This document shows positions 124 through 5,605 of a DNA stretch of 5,605 bases, piece after piece. Source of the DNA: a virus; the IMG/VR virus record IMGVR_UViG_3300011730_000006, positions 1 to 5,605 of that record. One strand, given 5' to 3'. Each line of letters begins with the position of its first letter. Position 1 is the stretch's first letter. Below the pieces are notes generated by a model that made no database searches, was not told the origin of the DNA, and saw only the letters and a program-made list of their open reading frames with translations. The translations under genes and the position numbers were made by a program.

Positions 124-265
124 CCAATGGGTTGAACAGGTAACTCTACTTGAGCAACTCGCAATAACTAAAACGCAGATGGCACAACTGGGGGCACCAA
201 TTATTGGTATTTACGGCTTAATCATCGCGTTTGCAATGTTCAATAACTTTTCTAAGAGGGCATGA
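80..265 (+). CDS. Small membrane protein, candidate minor coat protein (g7p/g9p-position analogue), 61 aa
   Basis: It lies between the ssDNA-binding gene and the major coat gene. The C-terminal hydrophobic segment APIIGIYGLIIAFAMF is followed by a basic tail SKRA. Its TGA stop overlaps the ATG at 262 (ATGA), suggesting translational coupling. No clear SD site is visible. Confidence 0.5.
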   Translation: MAYVCEVLDAAQACVQWVEQVTLLEQLAITKTQMAQLGAPIIGIYGLIIAFAMFNNFSKRA

Positions 266-267
266 AA

Positions 268-525
268 ATGTCAAATCAACTAGCTGTACAAGAAAAACGT
301 GGTGTTTTAACTCTGCGTAATGTTTCAACTTATGGTCTTGGTGCAACAATCGGCGGTGCTATGGCCCTTGCACCTGCTGCTAATGCTGAATCTGTTCTCG
401 ATTTCGCCGGTGCATCAGGTGAATTAGACGGTGTTAAAACTGCTGTTGTCGGAATTATCGGCACGTTAGTTGTTCTTATCGGCATAGGTATTGCCTGGTC
501 TTACTTTAAACGTACTGCCAAGTAA
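268..525 (+). CDS. Major coat protein (g8p-like) precursor
   Basis: The leader ends in an AxA cleavage motif (APAANA/ES). The predicted mature peptide of about 45 aa has an acidic N-terminus (E,D,E,D), a hydrophobic core AVVGIIGTLVVLIGIGIAW and a basic C-terminus SYFKRTAK, the classic inovirus coat architecture. The SD site GAGG at 256-259 is well spaced for ATG 268. The ORF-track ATG at 262 is only 2 nt from it. Confidence 0.85.
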   Translation: MSNQLAVQEKRGVLTLRNVSTYGLGATIGGAMALAPAANAESVLDFAGASGELDGVKTAVVGIIGTLVVLIGIGIAWSYFKRTAK

Positions 526-532
526 TGCAGAT

Positions 533-561
533 AAATGCCTCCGCTTGGGGGCATTTTTATT
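533..561 (+). terminator. Rho-independent terminator downstream of the major coat gene
   Basis: A 10-bp stem aaatgcctcc / gggggcattt (one G-U pair) has a GCTT loop at 543-546 and is followed by ttTTaTT. The same placement is known for the strong terminator after gVIII in Ff phages. Confidence 0.8.
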
Positions 562-571
562 GGGGTGAAAT

Positions 572-652
572 ATGGAAGAAGCATCAATCTTATACTGGAT
601 TCCGTTGGTGGTTACATGGGTCGCATTACATCTTTTAGCAAGCAAGTTGTAA
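572..652 (+). CDS. Hypothetical 26-aa hydrophobic peptide MEEASILYWIPLVVTWVALHLLASKL (not in ORF track)
   Basis: ATG 572 is preceded by GGGGTG at 562-567. It has one predicted transmembrane (TM) segment and a size comparable to Ff g7p/g9p (32-33 aa). It overlaps the start of the g3p-like gene in another frame. This is speculative. Confidence 0.25.
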   Translation: MEEASILYWIPLVVTWVALHLLASKL

Positions 653-1911
653 AAGTTCTAATCTGCTTTTGTCTTGTTTACATACCTTTTTTTGCGAATG
701 CTGCAAGTCTTGGCGGTTGGTCTCTTGGTTCTCCAGTAGCTTCCGGCGCTTCCGCAATCGTCAATGGAACAAAAGAAATCATTTTGAATGGTGCATCTAA
801 AATTGCAAAAGGCACTGCAAAAATAACACCGAATGCTTCACAAGTTGCAAATGTACTTAAACGTGGTGCAGCCGGTTATGCGCTTTCTGTCGCTGTAGAA
901 CAGCTTTTGGGTGCAGTCGATTGGGTTTTAGATCCGGCGAATAATCAGATTGTTTATACAAAGCCTTCTGATTTACCAGCGCCTAATGGCGCTTTCGTCT
1001 GGATTTGGGCGGGCTGCTCAAGTTATCAAGCATGTACGGTCGAGGGTATTATAGGTTCTACACCACAGGCTGCTTGTCAAAAATGGGCTGATGCACGTCA
1101 ACCCCTCACTGTATCTAGAACTATTTCAATGTCAGAAATTCGAGCTAGATGTATCTTTAGTGATAATACACAGCAAGATGTACAACGTGTTGCAAACCCT
1201 GCTTATGATCCGGACGCAGAAGATCAGAAGAAAACATTACCGCTTGAAACTGTAGCTCAAAAAGTAATTTCGAATGCTGCCGGCGGTGATGTATCAGCAC
1301 AACAAGCAATTACTGCTGCTGCACAAGATGTAATTAATGAAGCAGAAAATGACAGTGTTAAAGCTGCTCCAATTGTTCAGCAGCTAGAAGCATCAAAAGC
1401 AATTGAAGCTGAAAATACGGCAACTGGTGAACAGACACAAAACCCTGATAAACCCAATGTCACAAACATAAAGTTAGAATTTCCAGCTTTCTGCGGCTGG
1501 GCACCGCTTGTCTGCGAAGCTGCACAAACTGTAATTTCATTTCCGATTACTCTGACGAGTTGGTGGAATACAGTAAATCAATGGTGGCTTACACTTAATG
1601 AAAAAGCTGATCGATGGGCACGATCTATTAGTGAAGCTTGGTCTGAATTTAATGACACACCACCAAAAAATGAAGATACAGAACTCGAAATCGAACAGCC
1701 TGAAATTGAAGTAGATACAGACATAAATTTCGGCGGTGCTTGTCCATCTCCTCTTTCAACATCGTTCTCCATGTTTGGAAGCACACATACTATGGAATTT
1801 TCATTCGATCCAGTTTGTGAAATTGCTTCTTTTATAAAACCCGTTGTTGTTTCTATTTCTGCATTTAGTGCTGCACTCATTATTGGTGGCATCAGAACGG
1901 AGGATGACTAA
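616..1911 (+). CDS. Adsorption/minor coat protein (g3p-like), 431 aa from ATG 616
   Basis: It is the large gene immediately after the major coat gene. From ATG 616 (SD site GGTGG at 606-610) there is a signal peptide MGRITSFSKQVVKVLICFCLVYIPFFANA/AS. It has Cys-containing N- and C-terminal domains joined by an Ala/Gln/Glu-rich linker. The C-terminal hydrophobic anchor VVVSISAFSAALIIGGI is followed by RTEDD. The ORF-track start at 535 lies inside the terminator stem. Confidence 0.7.
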   Translation: MGRITSFSKQVVKVLICFCLVYIPFFANAASLGGWSLGSPVASGASAIVNGTKEIILNGASKIAKGTAKITPNASQVANVLKRGAAGYALSVAVEQLLGAVDWVLDPANNQIVYTKPSDLPAPNGAFVWIWAGCSSYQACTVEGIIGSTPQAACQKWADARQPLTVSRTISMSEIRARCIFSDNTQQDVQRVANPAYDPDAEDQKKTLPLETVAQKVISNAAGGDVSAQQAITAAAQDVINEAENDSVKAAPIVQQLEASKAIEAENTATGEQTQNPDKPNVTNIKLEFPAFCGWAPLVCEAAQTVISFPITLTSWWNTVNQWWLTLNEKADRWARSISEAWSEFNDTPPKNEDTELEIEQPEIEVDTDINFGGACPSPLSTSFSMFGSTHTMEFSFDPVCEIASFIKPVVVSISAFSAALIIGGIRTEDD

Positions 1912-2189
1912 TGTGGTCAAAACTTGCTGATCTTTTTACGTCACTTCAAAAGGGTACTTTAAAAAATGTTCTTACTGGTGCCGGCTTAATGCTAGGTACT
2001 AACGCTATATTTTTAACGACGTTTTCTGCTGCTGTGAATGCATTAAAAAACTCTGTTAATTCAGTTTCAGTCGATGTTCTATCGCTTGCTCATATAGCAG
2101 GTTTCGACATAGCTATGTCACTCATCTTGGGTGCAATTGTCACCCGACTAACCATGAATTCTTCAAAATTGGTATTAAGAAAACAGTAG
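1911..2189 (+). CDS. Small hydrophobic minor coat protein (g6p-like), 92 aa
   Basis: It follows the g3p-like gene with a TAATG overlap. A strong SD site GGAGGA at 1899-1904 sits 6 nt upstream. Several hydrophobic segments are present (GAGLMLGTNAIFLTTFSAAV, IAGFDIAMSLILGAIV). The assignment is positional. Confidence 0.6.
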   Translation: MWSKLADLFTSLQKGTLKNVLTGAGLMLGTNAIFLTTFSAAVNALKNSVNSVSVDVLSLAHIAGFDIAMSLILGAIVTRLTMNSSKLVLRKQ

Positions 2190-2257
2190 CGACCAAAAGA
2201 CATCCGCGTCCGCTATCCCGTCGGCTCGCGCGGGTGCGGAGCGGTGTCTAGGGTCGC
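2189..2257 (+). other. GC-rich long imperfect hairpin (candidate packaging signal, minus-strand origin or attachment sequence)
   Basis: Hand-folded pairs are gcgacc(2189-2194)/ggtcgc(2252-2257), agaca(2198-2202)/tgtct(2245-2249), ccgc(2204-2207)/gcgg(2241-2244), ccgc(2210-2213)/gcgg(2236-2239) and cccg(2217-2220)/cggg(2231-2234). GC content is far above that of the neighbouring genes. Confidence 0.6.
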
Positions 2258-2273
2258 GATAGGGTAAAAAATT

Positions 2274-3713
2274 ATGTTGCATTTTATTACTGGTACACCT
2301 GGTGCGGGTAAAACTCTTTACGCTGTATCTTTAATTGTTAAATATGAAAATGAAAATGATAGGGCATTAATATATAACGCTGCTGCTATTAAACATAATC
2401 AAGAAATTATTGAGAAAAATAAACTACAGTCTTATTTTCTTTTATATACATATTTCAGTAAAAAGACTAAAAAACAAGAAACTGTTTTATTCGAACCTGA
2501 TCATTTTAATTATTTAACTGAGCAGAAAAGAACAGATAATATTTTTCTTGATATTCAGTTTTATAATGGTATCTGTAAATCTATTAAAAATGATTTAGAT
2601 ATTGATTTAAAACATTTAAAAGATGTACGTCATATATATGCCAATATTGATGGTTTAAAAGTACCTAATGTTAAACCTGCTGAAATTGATTGGCGTAAAT
2701 GTCCTGATGGTTCTATTATTTTCTATGATGAGATTCAGTTAATTCCTGAATATTCTACTGATAATAAGCAGGACAGAGAAAATATAATAAAAGAATTAAC
2801 TATTCATCGTCATCGAGCTTTTGATATATATGGAATCACTCAGTTTCCTTCCTTGGTTAATACAAATTATCGTGCTGTTGTCGGTTTACATTATCACTTG
2901 CATCGTGGCTGGGGTGCGCCTTCCGCAACAGTTTACGTTTGGGCAAATTGTCGAGATAAGCCTAATAGTCTGGGTAATAAGCTTACTGCTGAACGTGATT
3001 TTCGATTTAATTATCCTAAAAAGTTGTATCAATACTACGAATCAGCTACTGCAAATACCGTTAAGTTGCGCGTACCTCTTAAATTATTCGCAATCCTTCT
3101 TATTCCAGTGGTCGGACTTGTTATGGTTGGTAATATGCTTTTTGGTGGCGGTAATAACTTTTTCGGTACAATTTTTGGAACAAAAGAAAAAACAGCGGAA
3201 GTAAAAAAAGAAACTTCCAATGTACCTACGGAAGTGAAAAAAGAAACTTCCAATCCTGATCTACTTGCTAACTCTCTCTCAGATCTATCACAAGAATGTC
3301 GAAAGGCTATCAATTTAGAAAAGCCTGAGTGTGTTAAATGGTTTAATGATTTAACTGCTACTAATGCATCAGTTTCAAAAAATGGTGTTGTAACAGTTTC
3401 ATATAACCCTGATCGTCCTTATGACTTTCATCCAGAGCCACAAGTACAAGTTCGTGACTATCCACGTTTAACCGGATGCGCACAATTTAATGGTACTTAT
3501 CGTGCTTATGATCAGCAGGGAAATGTTATGCCTAACATCTCACAAAGTGATTGTAAGCGCTGGATGAACGGTGAAAGAACGTTTGATTATACTAGAGCGC
3601 CTATTCAAGTTAGTGCACAACCTCAACAGCCTAAGCAAGAACAACAGACTACTAAATATGATGCTGAGTTCTTAGCTAAATATCAGCAAGCTAAAGCAGA
3701 GGGCTTGATATGA
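2274..3713 (+). CDS. Zot/pI-family phage assembly ATPase, 479 aa
   Basis: It has an N-terminal Walker A motif GTPGAGKT and a Walker B motif IIFYDE. The NIDGL motif and HRHRAFDI are typical of the Zot N-terminal domain. A single TM segment LFAILLIPVVGLVMVGNMLFGG is followed by a periplasmic C-terminal domain of about 185 aa. Its position after the g6p-like gene fits inovirus gene order. Confidence 0.92.
   Translation: MLHFITGTPGAGKTLYAVSLIVKYENENDRALIYNAAAIKHNQEIIEKNKLQSYFLLYTYFSKKTKKQETVLFEPDHFNYLTEQKRTDNIFLDIQFYNGICKSIKNDLDIDLKHLKDVRHIYANIDGLKVPNVKPAEIDWRKCPDGSIIFYDEIQLIPEYSTDNKQDRENIIKELTIHRHRAFDIYGITQFPSLVNTNYRAVVGLHYHLHRGWGAPSATVYVWANCRDKPNSLGNKLTAERDFRFNYPKKLYQYYESATANTVKLRVPLKLFAILLIPVVGLVMVGNMLFGGGNNFFGTIFGTKEKTAEVKKETSNVPTEVKKETSNPDLLANSLSDLSQECRKAINLEKPECVKWFNDLTATNASVSKNGVVTVSYNPDRPYDFHPEPQVQVRDYPRLTGCAQFNGTYRAYDQQGNVMPNISQSDCKRWMNGERTFDYTRAPIQVSAQPQQPKQEQQTTKYDAEFLAKYQQAKAEGLI
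3198..3254 (+). repeat. Tandem direct repeat with 33-nt period inside the Zot-like gene (EVKKETSN twice)
   Basis: gaagtaaaaaaagaaacttccaat (3198-3221) and gaagtgaaaaaagaaacttccaat (3231-3254) differ at 1 of 24 positions. They lie just after the TM segment. Confidence 0.9.
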
Positions 3714-3726
3714 ATTACAGAATTTC

Positions 3727-3740
3727 TTTTCCTTGATTAC
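3727..3740 (+). other. Degenerate second copy of the origin nick motif (ttttcCTTGATTac)
   Basis: It shares tttt(c)cttgat with the main motif at 3871-3881, in the same orientation, 143 nt upstream. Confidence 0.4.
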
Positions 3741-3771
3741 TTACCTTAATTTACTTCTAATATTAATTTAC

Positions 3772-3846
3772 AAAATTTTCGTTCAGGGGAATTCGAGACG
3801 GGTGAGTGCGCGAACCTGCGAGAAGGCGTAGTCTACGAAAAATTTT
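3772..3846 (+). other. GC-rich structured element closed by an A/T stem (candidate single-strand origin or packaging signal)
   Basis: aaaattttcgt (3772-3782) pairs with acgaaaaatttt (3835-3846) with one bulge. The enclosed approximately 52 nt is GC-rich (gagacgggtgagtgcgcgaacctgcgagaaggcg) within an AT-rich intergenic region. Confidence 0.5.
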
Positions 3847-3867: not shown

Positions 3868-3893
3868 TCCTTTTCTTGATAATTAAGGGATAA
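3868..3893 (+). other. Putative double-strand origin (dso) nick region, pC194/phiX174-like: tccttttCTTG/ATAattaagggataa
   Basis: It contains the CTTGATA core (3875-3881) flanked by a T-rich tract and AAGGG. As I recall it, this closely matches the pC194 origin (tcttatCTTGATAataagggtaac) and the phiX174 nick site (aCTTG/ATA). It is on the same strand as the genes and directly upstream of a Rep_1-type rep gene. Confidence 0.65.
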
Positions 3894-4014: not shown

Positions 4015-4998
4015 ATGTCAAATATAACAGATTTGACTGCACTGCCCAAGTTTTTTCTTGTTGACTACTCCAAAGATGACAATATCTGGGATAAACAACG
4101 GGCGACAGCTCAGGCCGTGCAGGAGATTTATCATAAGACTAGCTTCGATGCTTATCAATTTGGTTATCTTACTTTCTTTAAATATGCTCAGCGTATAGAA
4201 AAATGTTCTAATATTCTCAAATTCGGTTTTACTGATGATGAGAAATTGAAGCTTAAGCAGACTTTTTTTTGCCGTGTTCGCTATTGTCCTGTCTGCCAAT
4301 GGCGCAGATCTATGATGTGGCGTGCTCGCTTTTTTCAGATGATGCCTGAGTTACAACAGAACTATCCTACTCATCGTTGGGTATTTTTAACATTAACAGT
4401 TAAGAACTGTGATATTTCCGAACTTAGGCTAAATTTATCTAGAATGTCTAAAGCCTGGAACAAGTTTATTAAATATAAAAAACTTTCTGCTATAGATGGT
4501 TGGGTTCGTACCACTGAAGTTACTCGTTCTAAGGATGGTTCTGCTCATCCACATTTTCATTGCTTACTTATGGTAAAACCCAGTTTTTTTTCTGGTAAAA
4601 GCTATGTTAAGAACTCTGAATTTCGCGAATTATGGGCTAAAGCTTTAGAAGTTGATTATTTACCTATTACTCATGTTAAAGCTGTTAAGGGTGATTCTCC
4701 AGATAAGGCTGTTCTTGAAACTTTGAAATATAGTACTAAGCCTGATGATTTTTTTGACGATCATGATTGGTTTCGTCAGCTCACTCAGCAAACTCATAAG
4801 CTTCGTTTTGTTGCTACTGGTGGAATTCTTAAAGGTTGTCTTAAGAATGAAGATGATATAACTAATGAGGATATGATTAATACTGAAGGTGAAACTGAGG
4901 ATGATACAGATAAAAGACGCCTTGCATTTTTTTATAATGATGATTTAAGACGTTATCATCGTGCTCCAAATTATGATGAAAATATAGATGATGATTAA
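4015..4998 (+). CDS. rep: Rolling-circle replication initiator, Rep_1 (pC194/pUB110) family HUH endonuclease
   Basis: The conserved motifs appear in order: the Cys cluster CRVRYCPVCQWRR, motif 1 FLTLTV, the HUH motif HPHFHCLL (4546-4560 encodes HPHFH), and the catalytic Tyr motif LETLKYSTK (Tyr codon 4729-4731). The start is uncertain. ATG 4015 has a weak GGGA SD site, ATG 3994 is also possible, and the track's GTG at 3925 overlaps the predicted promoter. Confidence 0.9.
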   Translation: MSNITDLTALPKFFLVDYSKDDNIWDKQRATAQAVQEIYHKTSFDAYQFGYLTFFKYAQRIEKCSNILKFGFTDDEKLKLKQTFFCRVRYCPVCQWRRSMMWRARFFQMMPELQQNYPTHRWVFLTLTVKNCDISELRLNLSRMSKAWNKFIKYKKLSAIDGWVRTTEVTRSKDGSAHPHFHCLLMVKPSFFSGKSYVKNSEFRELWAKALEVDYLPITHVKAVKGDSPDKAVLETLKYSTKPDDFFDDHDWFRQLTQQTHKLRFVATGGILKGCLKNEDDITNEDMINTEGETEDDTDKRRLAFFYNDDLRRYHRAPNYDENIDDD

Positions 4999-5299: not shown

Positions 5300-5551
5300 A
5301 TGTCTATTCACGAAATTCGAGTACCATTAAATAATGTAGTTATTAAGACTAAAAATAATAAATCGGGTAATCCTTTTTATTATTTTGAAGTGTTAGAACC
5401 GCAATGGAAATTTTTACAAGTTAATAATAATCCTCGTGTTGAATCTCTCCTAGCTGAGTTTGCTAAAACTCAGCAGCCAATTAATTTAAATGCACTACTT
5501 CAAAAAGATAGTTTTGTTATTGATGACAATTCTTTTCAGCTTCAAAAGTAG
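5300..5551 (+). CDS. ssDNA-binding protein (g5p-like), 83 aa
   Basis: The SD site GAGGA (5289-5293) is 6 nt upstream. Its size and its position at the head of the structural operon match g5p (87 aa in Ff). The N-terminal pattern MSIHEIRVP...KNNKSGNPFYYFE is reminiscent of Ff g5p MIKVEIKPS...SRQGKPYSLNE. This is a positional and weak-motif assignment. Confidence 0.55.
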   Translation: MSIHEIRVPLNNVVIKTKNNKSGNPFYYFEVLEPQWKFLQVNNNPRVESLLAEFAKTQQPINLNALLQKDSFVIDDNSFQLQK

Positions 5552-5605
5552 GTTTTAAAAAATGGCATATGTCTGTGAAGTTTTAGACGCTGCACAAGCC
5601 TGTGT
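5483..5605. repeat. Terminal overlap (right copy), identical to 1-123
   Basis: Direct comparison with bases 1-123. The offset is 5482 nt. Confidence 0.95.
5562..5605 (+). CDS. 5' fragment (redundant copy) of the 61-aa membrane protein gene at 80-265
   Basis: It is identical to 80-123 because of the terminal overlap. Confidence 0.5.
   Translation, partial: MAYVCEVLDAAQAC

Follow-up and report, generated by a model that had tools for sequence, protein, structure and literature searches.

A covarying hairpin family of Acinetobacter filamentous phages and very small rolling-circle plasmids as a candidate single-strand origin

The 5,605-nt stretch of DNA analyzed here (the window), from the inovirus record IMGVR_UViG_3300011730_000006, contains a bulged GC-rich hairpin of 69 nt (H, positions 2189-2257) between a g6-like and a Zot-like gene. 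H belongs to a conserved, strand-locked and covarying family of folded DNA that is carried by phages and tiny rolling-circle plasmids. We suggest that H is a cis-acting element on the single-stranded (+) DNA, and most likely a cassette-type single-strand (minus-strand) origin (sso), a reading to which we give a probability of about one half. H would then function in priming, with the phage copy presumably doing the same job as the plasmid copies, and it may act as a packaging signal in addition. Priming is placed slightly ahead of packaging, as it accounts for the plasmid data and requires no new phenomenon.

The original prediction, made from the sequence alone, had described a GC-rich island of 69 nt that starts at the last base of the g6-like stop codon and folds into a stem of ~25 bp in five segments. 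The island is present as described, with a GC content of 69.6%; it begins with the G of the TAG codon and ends 16 nt before the Zot ATG at 2274. The g6-like gene has 37% GC, and the first 430 nt of the Zot-like gene have 25.5%. The computed stem is close to the predicted one, with 27 pairs in seven short helices, and is interrupted mostly by single-base bulges on the 5' arm and closed by the terminal loop GCTCG. The region 2180-2270 was folded and compared with shuffled controls, as had been proposed, and the fold proved significant. As single-stranded DNA (ssDNA), the + strand reached -25.5 kcal/mol, compared with -14.1 +/- 2.1 for the shuffles (z = -5.36), and 0 of 200 shuffles were as stable. 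The - strand gave -24.2 kcal/mol (z = -4.86), and the RNA fold of the same region gave -43.6 kcal/mol (z = -4.66). H is the most stable 80-nt fold of the whole genome, the runner-up (-17.9) lying inside coding sequence, and the same scan ranks it first in the window and in five related phages. No Rfam covariance model gave a match at E <= 1 overlapping H, and with the family model R1, neither the window nor more distant relatives yielded a second copy. The predicted lack of a T-run also holds, since neither a T-run nor a terminator-like site was found within 1800-2500 and the stem is followed by GATAGGGTAAAAAA; H as an intrinsic terminator was thus ruled out.

A BLAST search of 72,556 plasmid records detected the conserved core of H in only two, circular plasmids of A. 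indicus (1601 bp) and A. chinensis (1398 bp), both from cultured Acinetobacter. Pattern scans then located H at the same junction of g6 stop and Zot start in six phage contigs (L004, L005, L006, L024, L151 and L154) and in 15 further small metagenome contigs of 1.7-6.3 kb, bringing the rolling-circle plasmid or satellite contexts with H to ~17 in all. Among the 18 metagenome matches, 17 are on small rolling-circle-type contigs, and the exception (L160) is a chance match in GC-rich DNA. The 23 distinct copies form a nearly gap-free alignment (A1), in which columns 35-58 correspond to the search pattern, so that invariance there is partly ascertainment. The 41-nt core of the window is 78-90% identical to the phage and plasmid copies with a full apex and 68-71% identical to the variants with a 5-nt deletion (L006 and L155b).

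Relatives had also been suggested as a place to look for covariation, and compensatory changes were indeed found there. Outside the search pattern, pairing is kept by double changes: the column pair 24:64 is UA in nine copies and CG in seven, 30:59 is CG in 15 and UA in eight, and 26:62 and 28:60 swap GC and AU on both sides in two copies each. Compensatory changes affect eight pairs, and 87.5% of the cells are paired in the 21-pair stem above the outermost helix. The covariation score was not reached in any of 500 shuffles and dropped to one third when the register was slid. The basal helices are paired in the window, L004, L005 and L151, which gives four of the six phage copies (not L006 and L024) an extra basal stem of 11 bp; family-wide, the outermost helix (helix 1) is only 28% paired. 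In the plasmid copies, the basal 5' flank is an AGCGAC box and the basal 3' flank a GGA(A)GCGA box, both of them single-stranded. The word TAGCGA at the 5' foot of H (2187-2192) also occurs in several plasmid copies.

Two kinds of natural variation were observed. An apical form with a 5-nt deletion, CCCGACTCGCGGG, is present both in the phage L006 (2248-2275) and in the plasmid contig L155 (- strand, oriented position 2135), which suggests that the two pools exchange hairpins or that a second form is tolerated. In public sequencing runs, close variants of the phage show C2210A, with loss of a stem pair, G2224T, a loop change also present in L024 and L151, and C2257T, which turns a G-C into a G-T pair. 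At this short range, H varies about as much as the flanking genes.

The replicons that carry H use three unrelated families of rolling-circle initiators. A Rep_1 initiator is encoded by the window, L005, L152, L164 and L165, a Rep_trans initiator by L004, and a Phage_CRI/G2P initiator by L158, as found by scanning, and by L156, L166 and L167, as judged from clustering of their open reading frames (ORFs) with L158. Therefore, H is not a Rep-binding site; what all of its carriers have in common is a single-stranded stage. H lies on the rep strand in all plasmid-type copies, which the nick motifs indicate to be probably the displaced strand, and on the strand of all genes in the phages. Of the 17 distinct plasmid contexts, at least 12 have a plus-origin-like motif whose start lies 6-40 nt 3' of H. 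Two kinds of this motif occur, namely, nick hairpins of the Ff type, with the sequence GTCCAC-TTATTTAATA-GTGGAC (for example, in the Rep-less circle L003) or with GTCTAGTAATA loops, and CTTGAT/CTTGNTAA sites. Some strong hairpin occupies the same slot in every tiny plasmid examined. Tiny A. baumannii plasmids of the G2P type, the Rep of one being 77% identical to that of L158, have other strong hairpins there (L172, -21.4; L173, -17, z -4.4), as do the Rep_1 plasmids L168 and L169.

The phages show a different kind of association. Zot is 63-76% identical among the carriers of H, whereas the Reps of the window and L005 are only 27% identical over 102 residues and the Rep of L004 belongs to Rep_trans. 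The conservation of Zot during this divergence and replacement of Reps indicates that H travels with the assembly genes as replication modules are exchanged.

H has several features that are generic to ssos, namely, maintained intrastrand pairing, a fixed orientation and exchange between replicons with unrelated Reps. As for the distance from the double-strand origin (dso), the 6-40 nt on its 5' side seen in most plasmid contexts compare with 1.6 kb in the window and its phage relatives. By analogy, the slot of H in the plasmids corresponds to that of an sso relative to the dso in rolling-circle plasmids and, through the G2P replicons, to that of the M13 hairpins B and C relative to the nick hairpin in the M13 intergenic region. 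Plasmids that encode only a Rep need a lagging-strand origin, not a packaging signal. The presence of other hairpins in the same slot resembles cassette-like turnover, which is known for ssoA, ssoU, ssoT and ssoW. In the window, the main intergenic region contains no significant fold that could serve instead (z 0.13). An sso carrying a CS-6-like TAGCGA has also been proposed independently upstream of the CTTGATA dso in related Acinetobacter-type Rep_1 circles (PMC10378824).

According to this interpretation, the viral strand would be freed after infection or after a round of rolling-circle replication, and the GC-rich bulged hairpin would stay duplex while the AT-rich rest is coated by SSB, the binding protein for single-stranded DNA. 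A host priming enzyme, for which RNA polymerase, DnaG primase and the PriA primosome are candidates, would recognize H and make the primer for the complementary strand. In the tiny Acinetobacter plasmids and satellites, the 41-nt core would act as a portable cassette directly 5' of the plus origin, and in the phage clade, the cassette would have been placed between g6 and g1 and extended by the two basal helices.

Several observations speak against an sso. The phage copy does not adjoin the nick site but lies 1.6 kb away from it, and it is co-inherited with the assembly genes while the replication module is swapped. With -25.5 kcal/mol, it resembles the M13 packaging hairpin and not the weaker minus-origin hairpins. 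There are no -35/-10-like hexamers in or beside 2189-2257, the two promoter-like sites within 1800-2500 lying elsewhere and equaling the shuffle expectation, and H is therefore not an RNA polymerase origin of the Ff type. TAGCGA is found at the foot of H and not in the loop, as it is in ssoA. Finally, the true minus origin could be one of three conserved boxes near the origins (Boxes A, B and C, see below). The resemblance of the AAGCGA flanks to AAGCGG, which we take to be a primosome-site word, was not used as evidence.

We compared H with the known elements of both kinds. The Firmicutes ssos (ssoA, ssoU, ssoT and ssoW) are, like H, non-coding, strand-specific imperfect hairpins that are swapped as cassettes among replicons with unrelated Reps and whose stems are kept by compensatory changes. 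They lie shortly 5' of the dso, as do the plasmid copies of H, and share with it a TAGCGA (CS-6-like) word. However, they have no detectable sequence relation to H and are 130-300 nt long compared with ~41-69 nt, and the host of H is Gram-negative. The phage copy, moreover, lies inside a structural operon, 1.6 kb from the dso, and the role of H is a proposed one. ssoA contains an RSB and carries CS-6 (TAGCGT/A) in its terminal loop, whereas H has TAGCGA at its foot, GCTCG in its loop and no RSB-like element; an assignment of H to the ssoA type was therefore rejected. Other complementary-strand origins, including the Ff hairpins B and C, the G4 oric site for DnaG and the phiX174 n' site for PriA, are likewise SSB-resistant hairpins on the viral strand, and hairpins B and C have the same place beside the nick hairpin as the plasmid copies of H. 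H differs from them in lacking promoter-like hexamers and a CTG at a fixed distance 3' of the hairpin, which was not found conserved across the aligned family. The complementary-strand sites of phiX174 and G4 between the structural genes F and G provide a precedent for a site far from the plus origin.

The SPHINX/BMMF group 2 and pTS236-type Rep_1 circles have the same host group and the same Rep_1/CTTGATA origin type as the carriers of H, and the sso proposed for them upstream of the dso contains TAGCGA/T; the likeness is one of description, not alignment (PMC10378824). That proposal is based on a motif match and a drawn stem-loop only, and in the literature searched we found no other description of an sso or a primosome site in Acinetobacter replicons. 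The p4ABAYE/pTS236-type plasmids were not reached when all plasmid records were searched by BLAST with the hairpin, and they therefore probably have a different cassette.

The other known element, hairpin A of the Ff phages (M13/f1/fd), brings us to the possibility that H is a packaging signal, as which it would form a duplex tip that escapes the phage ssDNA-binding protein, is recognized by g1/Zot and the small tip proteins and starts extrusion. In the same scan, the top fold of M13 was this packaging hairpin (5496-5575, -28.0 kcal/mol, 69% GC), which has its start at the gene IV TAG; the minus-origin hairpins were much weaker (-16.7 and -13.4). Like hairpin A, H is the most stable fold of its genome, an imperfect stem of ~70% GC in an AT-rich genome (69 nt compared with ~78 nt) that starts at the TAG stop of a morphogenesis gene and lies on the packaged strand. 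It is also the single dominant fold in each of the six related phage contigs scanned, has remained in the morphogenesis module through the exchange of three replication modules, and gained its basal stem in four of the six phage copies by conversion of the plasmid-type flanks into helix. Under this hypothesis, the tiny plasmids and Rep-less circles would be satellites or natural phagemids that borrow H to be packaged by these phages. The Rep-less 1398-bp circle L003 retains H together with an Ff-like origin, an L002-like plasmid contig and the phage were found in one air-metagenome run, and packaging of plasmid-like circles by a helper filamentous phage has precedents in the Vibrio satellites RS1 and TLC. 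However, it must be supposed that many tiny plasmids of three Rep families are phage satellites, and the hypothesis accounts neither for the 6-40 nt by which H precedes the plus origin in most plasmid contexts nor for the strong hairpin in that slot of every tiny plasmid examined. In public runs, the best 24 with the L165-type plasmid and the best 23 with the phage did not overlap, which is weak evidence; set against the one common run, co-occurrence is uninformative overall. Unlike hairpin A, which is in the main intergenic region, H is placed between g6 and g1, and its core is also present on Rep-only plasmids next to their origins, where the Ff packaging signal is not known to occur. Model R1 showed no similarity to the M13 packaging signal, its best match (7.8 bits, E 2.2) being elsewhere in the M13 genome. 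It is thus possible, though we hold it to be somewhat less probable than an sso, that H is the packaging signal of an Acinetobacter filamentous phage clade, captured by 1.4-2.4-kb plasmids and Rep-less circles of three Rep families as natural phagemids; a variant of the same tentative standing is that one hairpin serves as both minus origin and packaging signal. The original prediction had offered packaging and priming side by side for a structured ssDNA element. Its element has been borne out as conserved, covarying, strand-locked and common to rolling-circle replicons, while the computation makes no choice between the two roles.

H might instead work mainly at the RNA level, as an mRNA hairpin between g6 and g1 that shields the g3-g6 message from 3' exonucleases or attenuates read-through so that the toxic ATPase is kept low. 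The RNA fold is strong (-43.6 kcal/mol, z -4.7), H is placed 16 nt ahead of the g1 start with the ribosome-binding site left free, in the distant relative L015, this junction is occupied by a GC-rich hairpin other than H, and low expression of gene I is important in Ff. The lack of a T-run and of a terminator-like site, the occurrence of the same core beside plasmid origins in unrelated transcriptional settings and the distant relatives that do without any g6/Zot spacer make such a function improbable, although a side effect of H on expression is possible. Still less probable is an accessory site of the replication initiator, either an enhancer or a signal for rolling-circle termination; H adjoins the plus origin in most plasmid contexts, but it is found with three unrelated initiator families and deeply divergent Rep_1 proteins, and 1.6 kb separate it from the nick site in the phages. 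The origin from the host as a REP-like repeat or chromosomal attachment site, which the original prediction had allowed because of the sharp GC contrast to the surrounding phage DNA, fares worst and is very unlikely. H is a single-copy element, its core occurs in only those two tiny plasmids among the 72,556 records, 17 of the 18 metagenome matches are on small rolling-circle-type contigs and not chromosomal, and H has no dif-like arms, integrating relatives having a separate hairpin with XerC/XerD-like arms. For the lack of such arms, H was also rejected as a CTX-type XerCD attP hairpin. A scan of bacterial genomes with a loose pattern, in which Acinetobacter chromosomes were not properly covered, gave at least 120 matches, and 0 of 120 were true; they came from GC-rich taxa (median 68% GC).

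The features of the window are listed in Table 1. Bases 1-123 recur exactly at 5483-5605, and the window is therefore a 5482-nt circle read past its own junction, in agreement with the catalog entry as a complete genome with direct terminal repeats. The genome has a GC content of 36.8%, and its long ORFs are on the + strand only. The g6-like and Zot-like identities first assigned to the neighbors of H were confirmed by Pfam. When 50,697 phage records were searched by BLAST with the whole genome and with the hairpin, no useful match was obtained; Dulem virus 65 and Acinetobacter phage M02 are the named phages closest in Zot, with only ~31% identity. All nucleotide matches of the structural genes are to Acinetobacter records, and the closest plasmid Reps to that of the window come from Acinetobacter plasmids of 1.4-1.7 kb, so the host is very probably Acinetobacter or a close relative. 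The phage or its close relatives are present in air, food, mammal, indoor and wastewater metagenomes. The place of H between the g6-like and Zot genes had been called unusual, and the more distant relatives agree with this: L013, L014 and the 6.4-kb Acinetobacter 'plasmid' pANC7912.4 have no g6/Zot spacer.

Table 1. Coordinates of the hairpin and of the other features of the window
Feature	Position	Strand	Evidence and remarks
Two small genes	80-265 and 262-525	+	ORF
g3-like gene	535-1911	+	ORF
g6-like gene (DUF2523)	1911-2189	+	Pfam PF10734, E 7.9e-10; TAG stop (2187-2189) shares its last base with the hairpin start
Bulged hairpin H, phage form, 69 nt	2189-2257	+	ssDNA fold -25.5 kcal/mol, z -5.4; 69.6% GC; 93% identity in phages L004, L005, L151
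5' halves of the two basal helices	2189-2202	+	GCGACC 2189-2194, AGACA 2198-2202
Conserved core hairpin, 41 nt, common to plasmids	2204-2244	+	Alignment A1 columns 24-64; every core pair retained
Apex ATCCCGnCGnCTCGCGCGGGTGCG	2215-2238	+	Unchanged in 21 of 23 family members; equals the search pattern, so invariance is partly ascertainment
3' halves of the two basal helices	2245-2257	+	TGTCT 2245-2249, GGTCGC 2252-2257
Zot/g1-like assembly ATPase gene	2274-3713	+	Pfam PF05707, E 1.4e-13; ATG 16 nt past the hairpin
Box A TTCCTTGATTACTTACC, non-coding	3728-3745	+	C[CT]TGATTAC in phage intergenic regions and nearly all tiny plasmids
Second GC-rich island, 5' of nick site	3786-3840	+	Fold not significant, z +0.33
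CTTGATA, probable plus-strand nick site (dso)	3875-3881	+	Direct reading; 1.6 kb downstream of H
Rep_1-type rolling-circle initiator gene	4015-4998	+	Pfam PF01446, E 1.6e-81; frame open from 3925

The context CTTG..TTAAGGGATAA of the probable nick site is the same in the plasmids L168 and L169, whose Reps are, among those of plasmids, nearest to that of the window (~50% identity). The second GC-rich island was considered as a decayed copy of H and rejected, since model R1 gave no match, BLAST gave only a weak match to Box A (E 0.8) and there was no significant fold. Three non-coding boxes are common to the phages and nearly all tiny plasmids, namely, TTCCCTGATTACAAGCTCCC (Box A), ACAGAG-[small covarying GC hairpin]-CGAACTGA (Box B) and CGAGTGTCTACGAG(T/C)GAC (Box C). 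They are found at 3728-3745 and 3796-3830 of the window and elsewhere at L002:985-1050, L003:590-660, L024:3320-3440, L015:3885-4010 and L171:1225-1350. In L015, a B-A-B group is located just upstream of a tyrosine-integrase gene, and in several phages, a hydrophobic ORF of ~30 codons starts after Box B. The boxes might function as a recombination site, as a promoter/leader or as the real minus origin.

Distant relatives (L009:2940-3050, L012:4470-4570 and L171:1625-1725) have long AT-rich intergenic hairpins with XerC-like (ATTTCGCATAA / ATTTCGTATAA) and XerD-like (TTATGTTACAT) arms on both sides of the stem, called with the dif/pdif consensus. They resemble the folded ssDNA attP sites of the CTX type, which mimic dif; as counterparts of H in packaging or as an origin, they were rejected, their arms pointing to integration sites. 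The clade of the window has no such hairpins and may be non-integrating.

Some of the plasmid-type carriers have further peculiarities. The 1398-bp A. chinensis circle L003 (NZ_CP032130.1) has no rep and carries an RHH gene, Boxes B and A, H and an origin hairpin, GTCCAC-TTATTTAATA-GTGGACTC, which is nearly identical to the M13/f1 nick hairpin and was listed together with L155:2800-3200 (- strand). Having an Ff-like origin and no rep, L003 needs a G2P-type Rep in trans and is thus a satellite replicon. Among the small accessory ORFs of the plasmid contigs, this RHH protein alone gave a Pfam match. In L156 (- strand, oriented 1530-1650), H lies between direct repeats GAGTGTCTACGAGCGAA (Box C), which could be a duplication from insertion of the cassette or two copies of a binding site. 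Contigs L152, L153, L156, L159 and L165 contain two or three diverged rep genes and origin regions in tandem and are either co-integrated or multimeric forms of related tiny plasmids or chimeras made in assembly. Short tandem repeats of ACATGACA / ACAACATG near the origins (L002:901-925; L172, NZ_CP114384.1, ~100-150; L166:1568-1590) occur with different Rep families and may be iteron-like binding sites.

To our knowledge, the cis signals of filamentous phages are known experimentally almost only for Ff, and ssos have been characterized almost only in Gram-positive plasmids. Hairpin-type ssos and packaging signals are already known kinds of element; what is new is that the family of H occurs in a Gram-negative genus, that phages and plasmids with three families of Rep share it and that it is placed inside a structural operon, none of which is described in Rfam or the literature searched. 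H is a compact element, suited to alignment and modeling, that links Acinetobacter inoviruses to the very small cryptic plasmids common in Acinetobacter, among them plasmids of clinical A. baumannii and circles associated with food and cattle that have been discussed under the name SPHINX/BMMF. As a minus-strand origin, H would, as far as we have found, belong to the first sso families defined by sequence and proposed for Acinetobacter, and vector design could make use of it. Should H be a packaging signal instead, the tiny plasmids would be hitchhikers carried by phages, natural phagemids that move between cells in filamentous virions, and their spread would have to be understood differently. 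Under either interpretation, a single core of 41 nt makes the question accessible to simple deletion and transduction tests.

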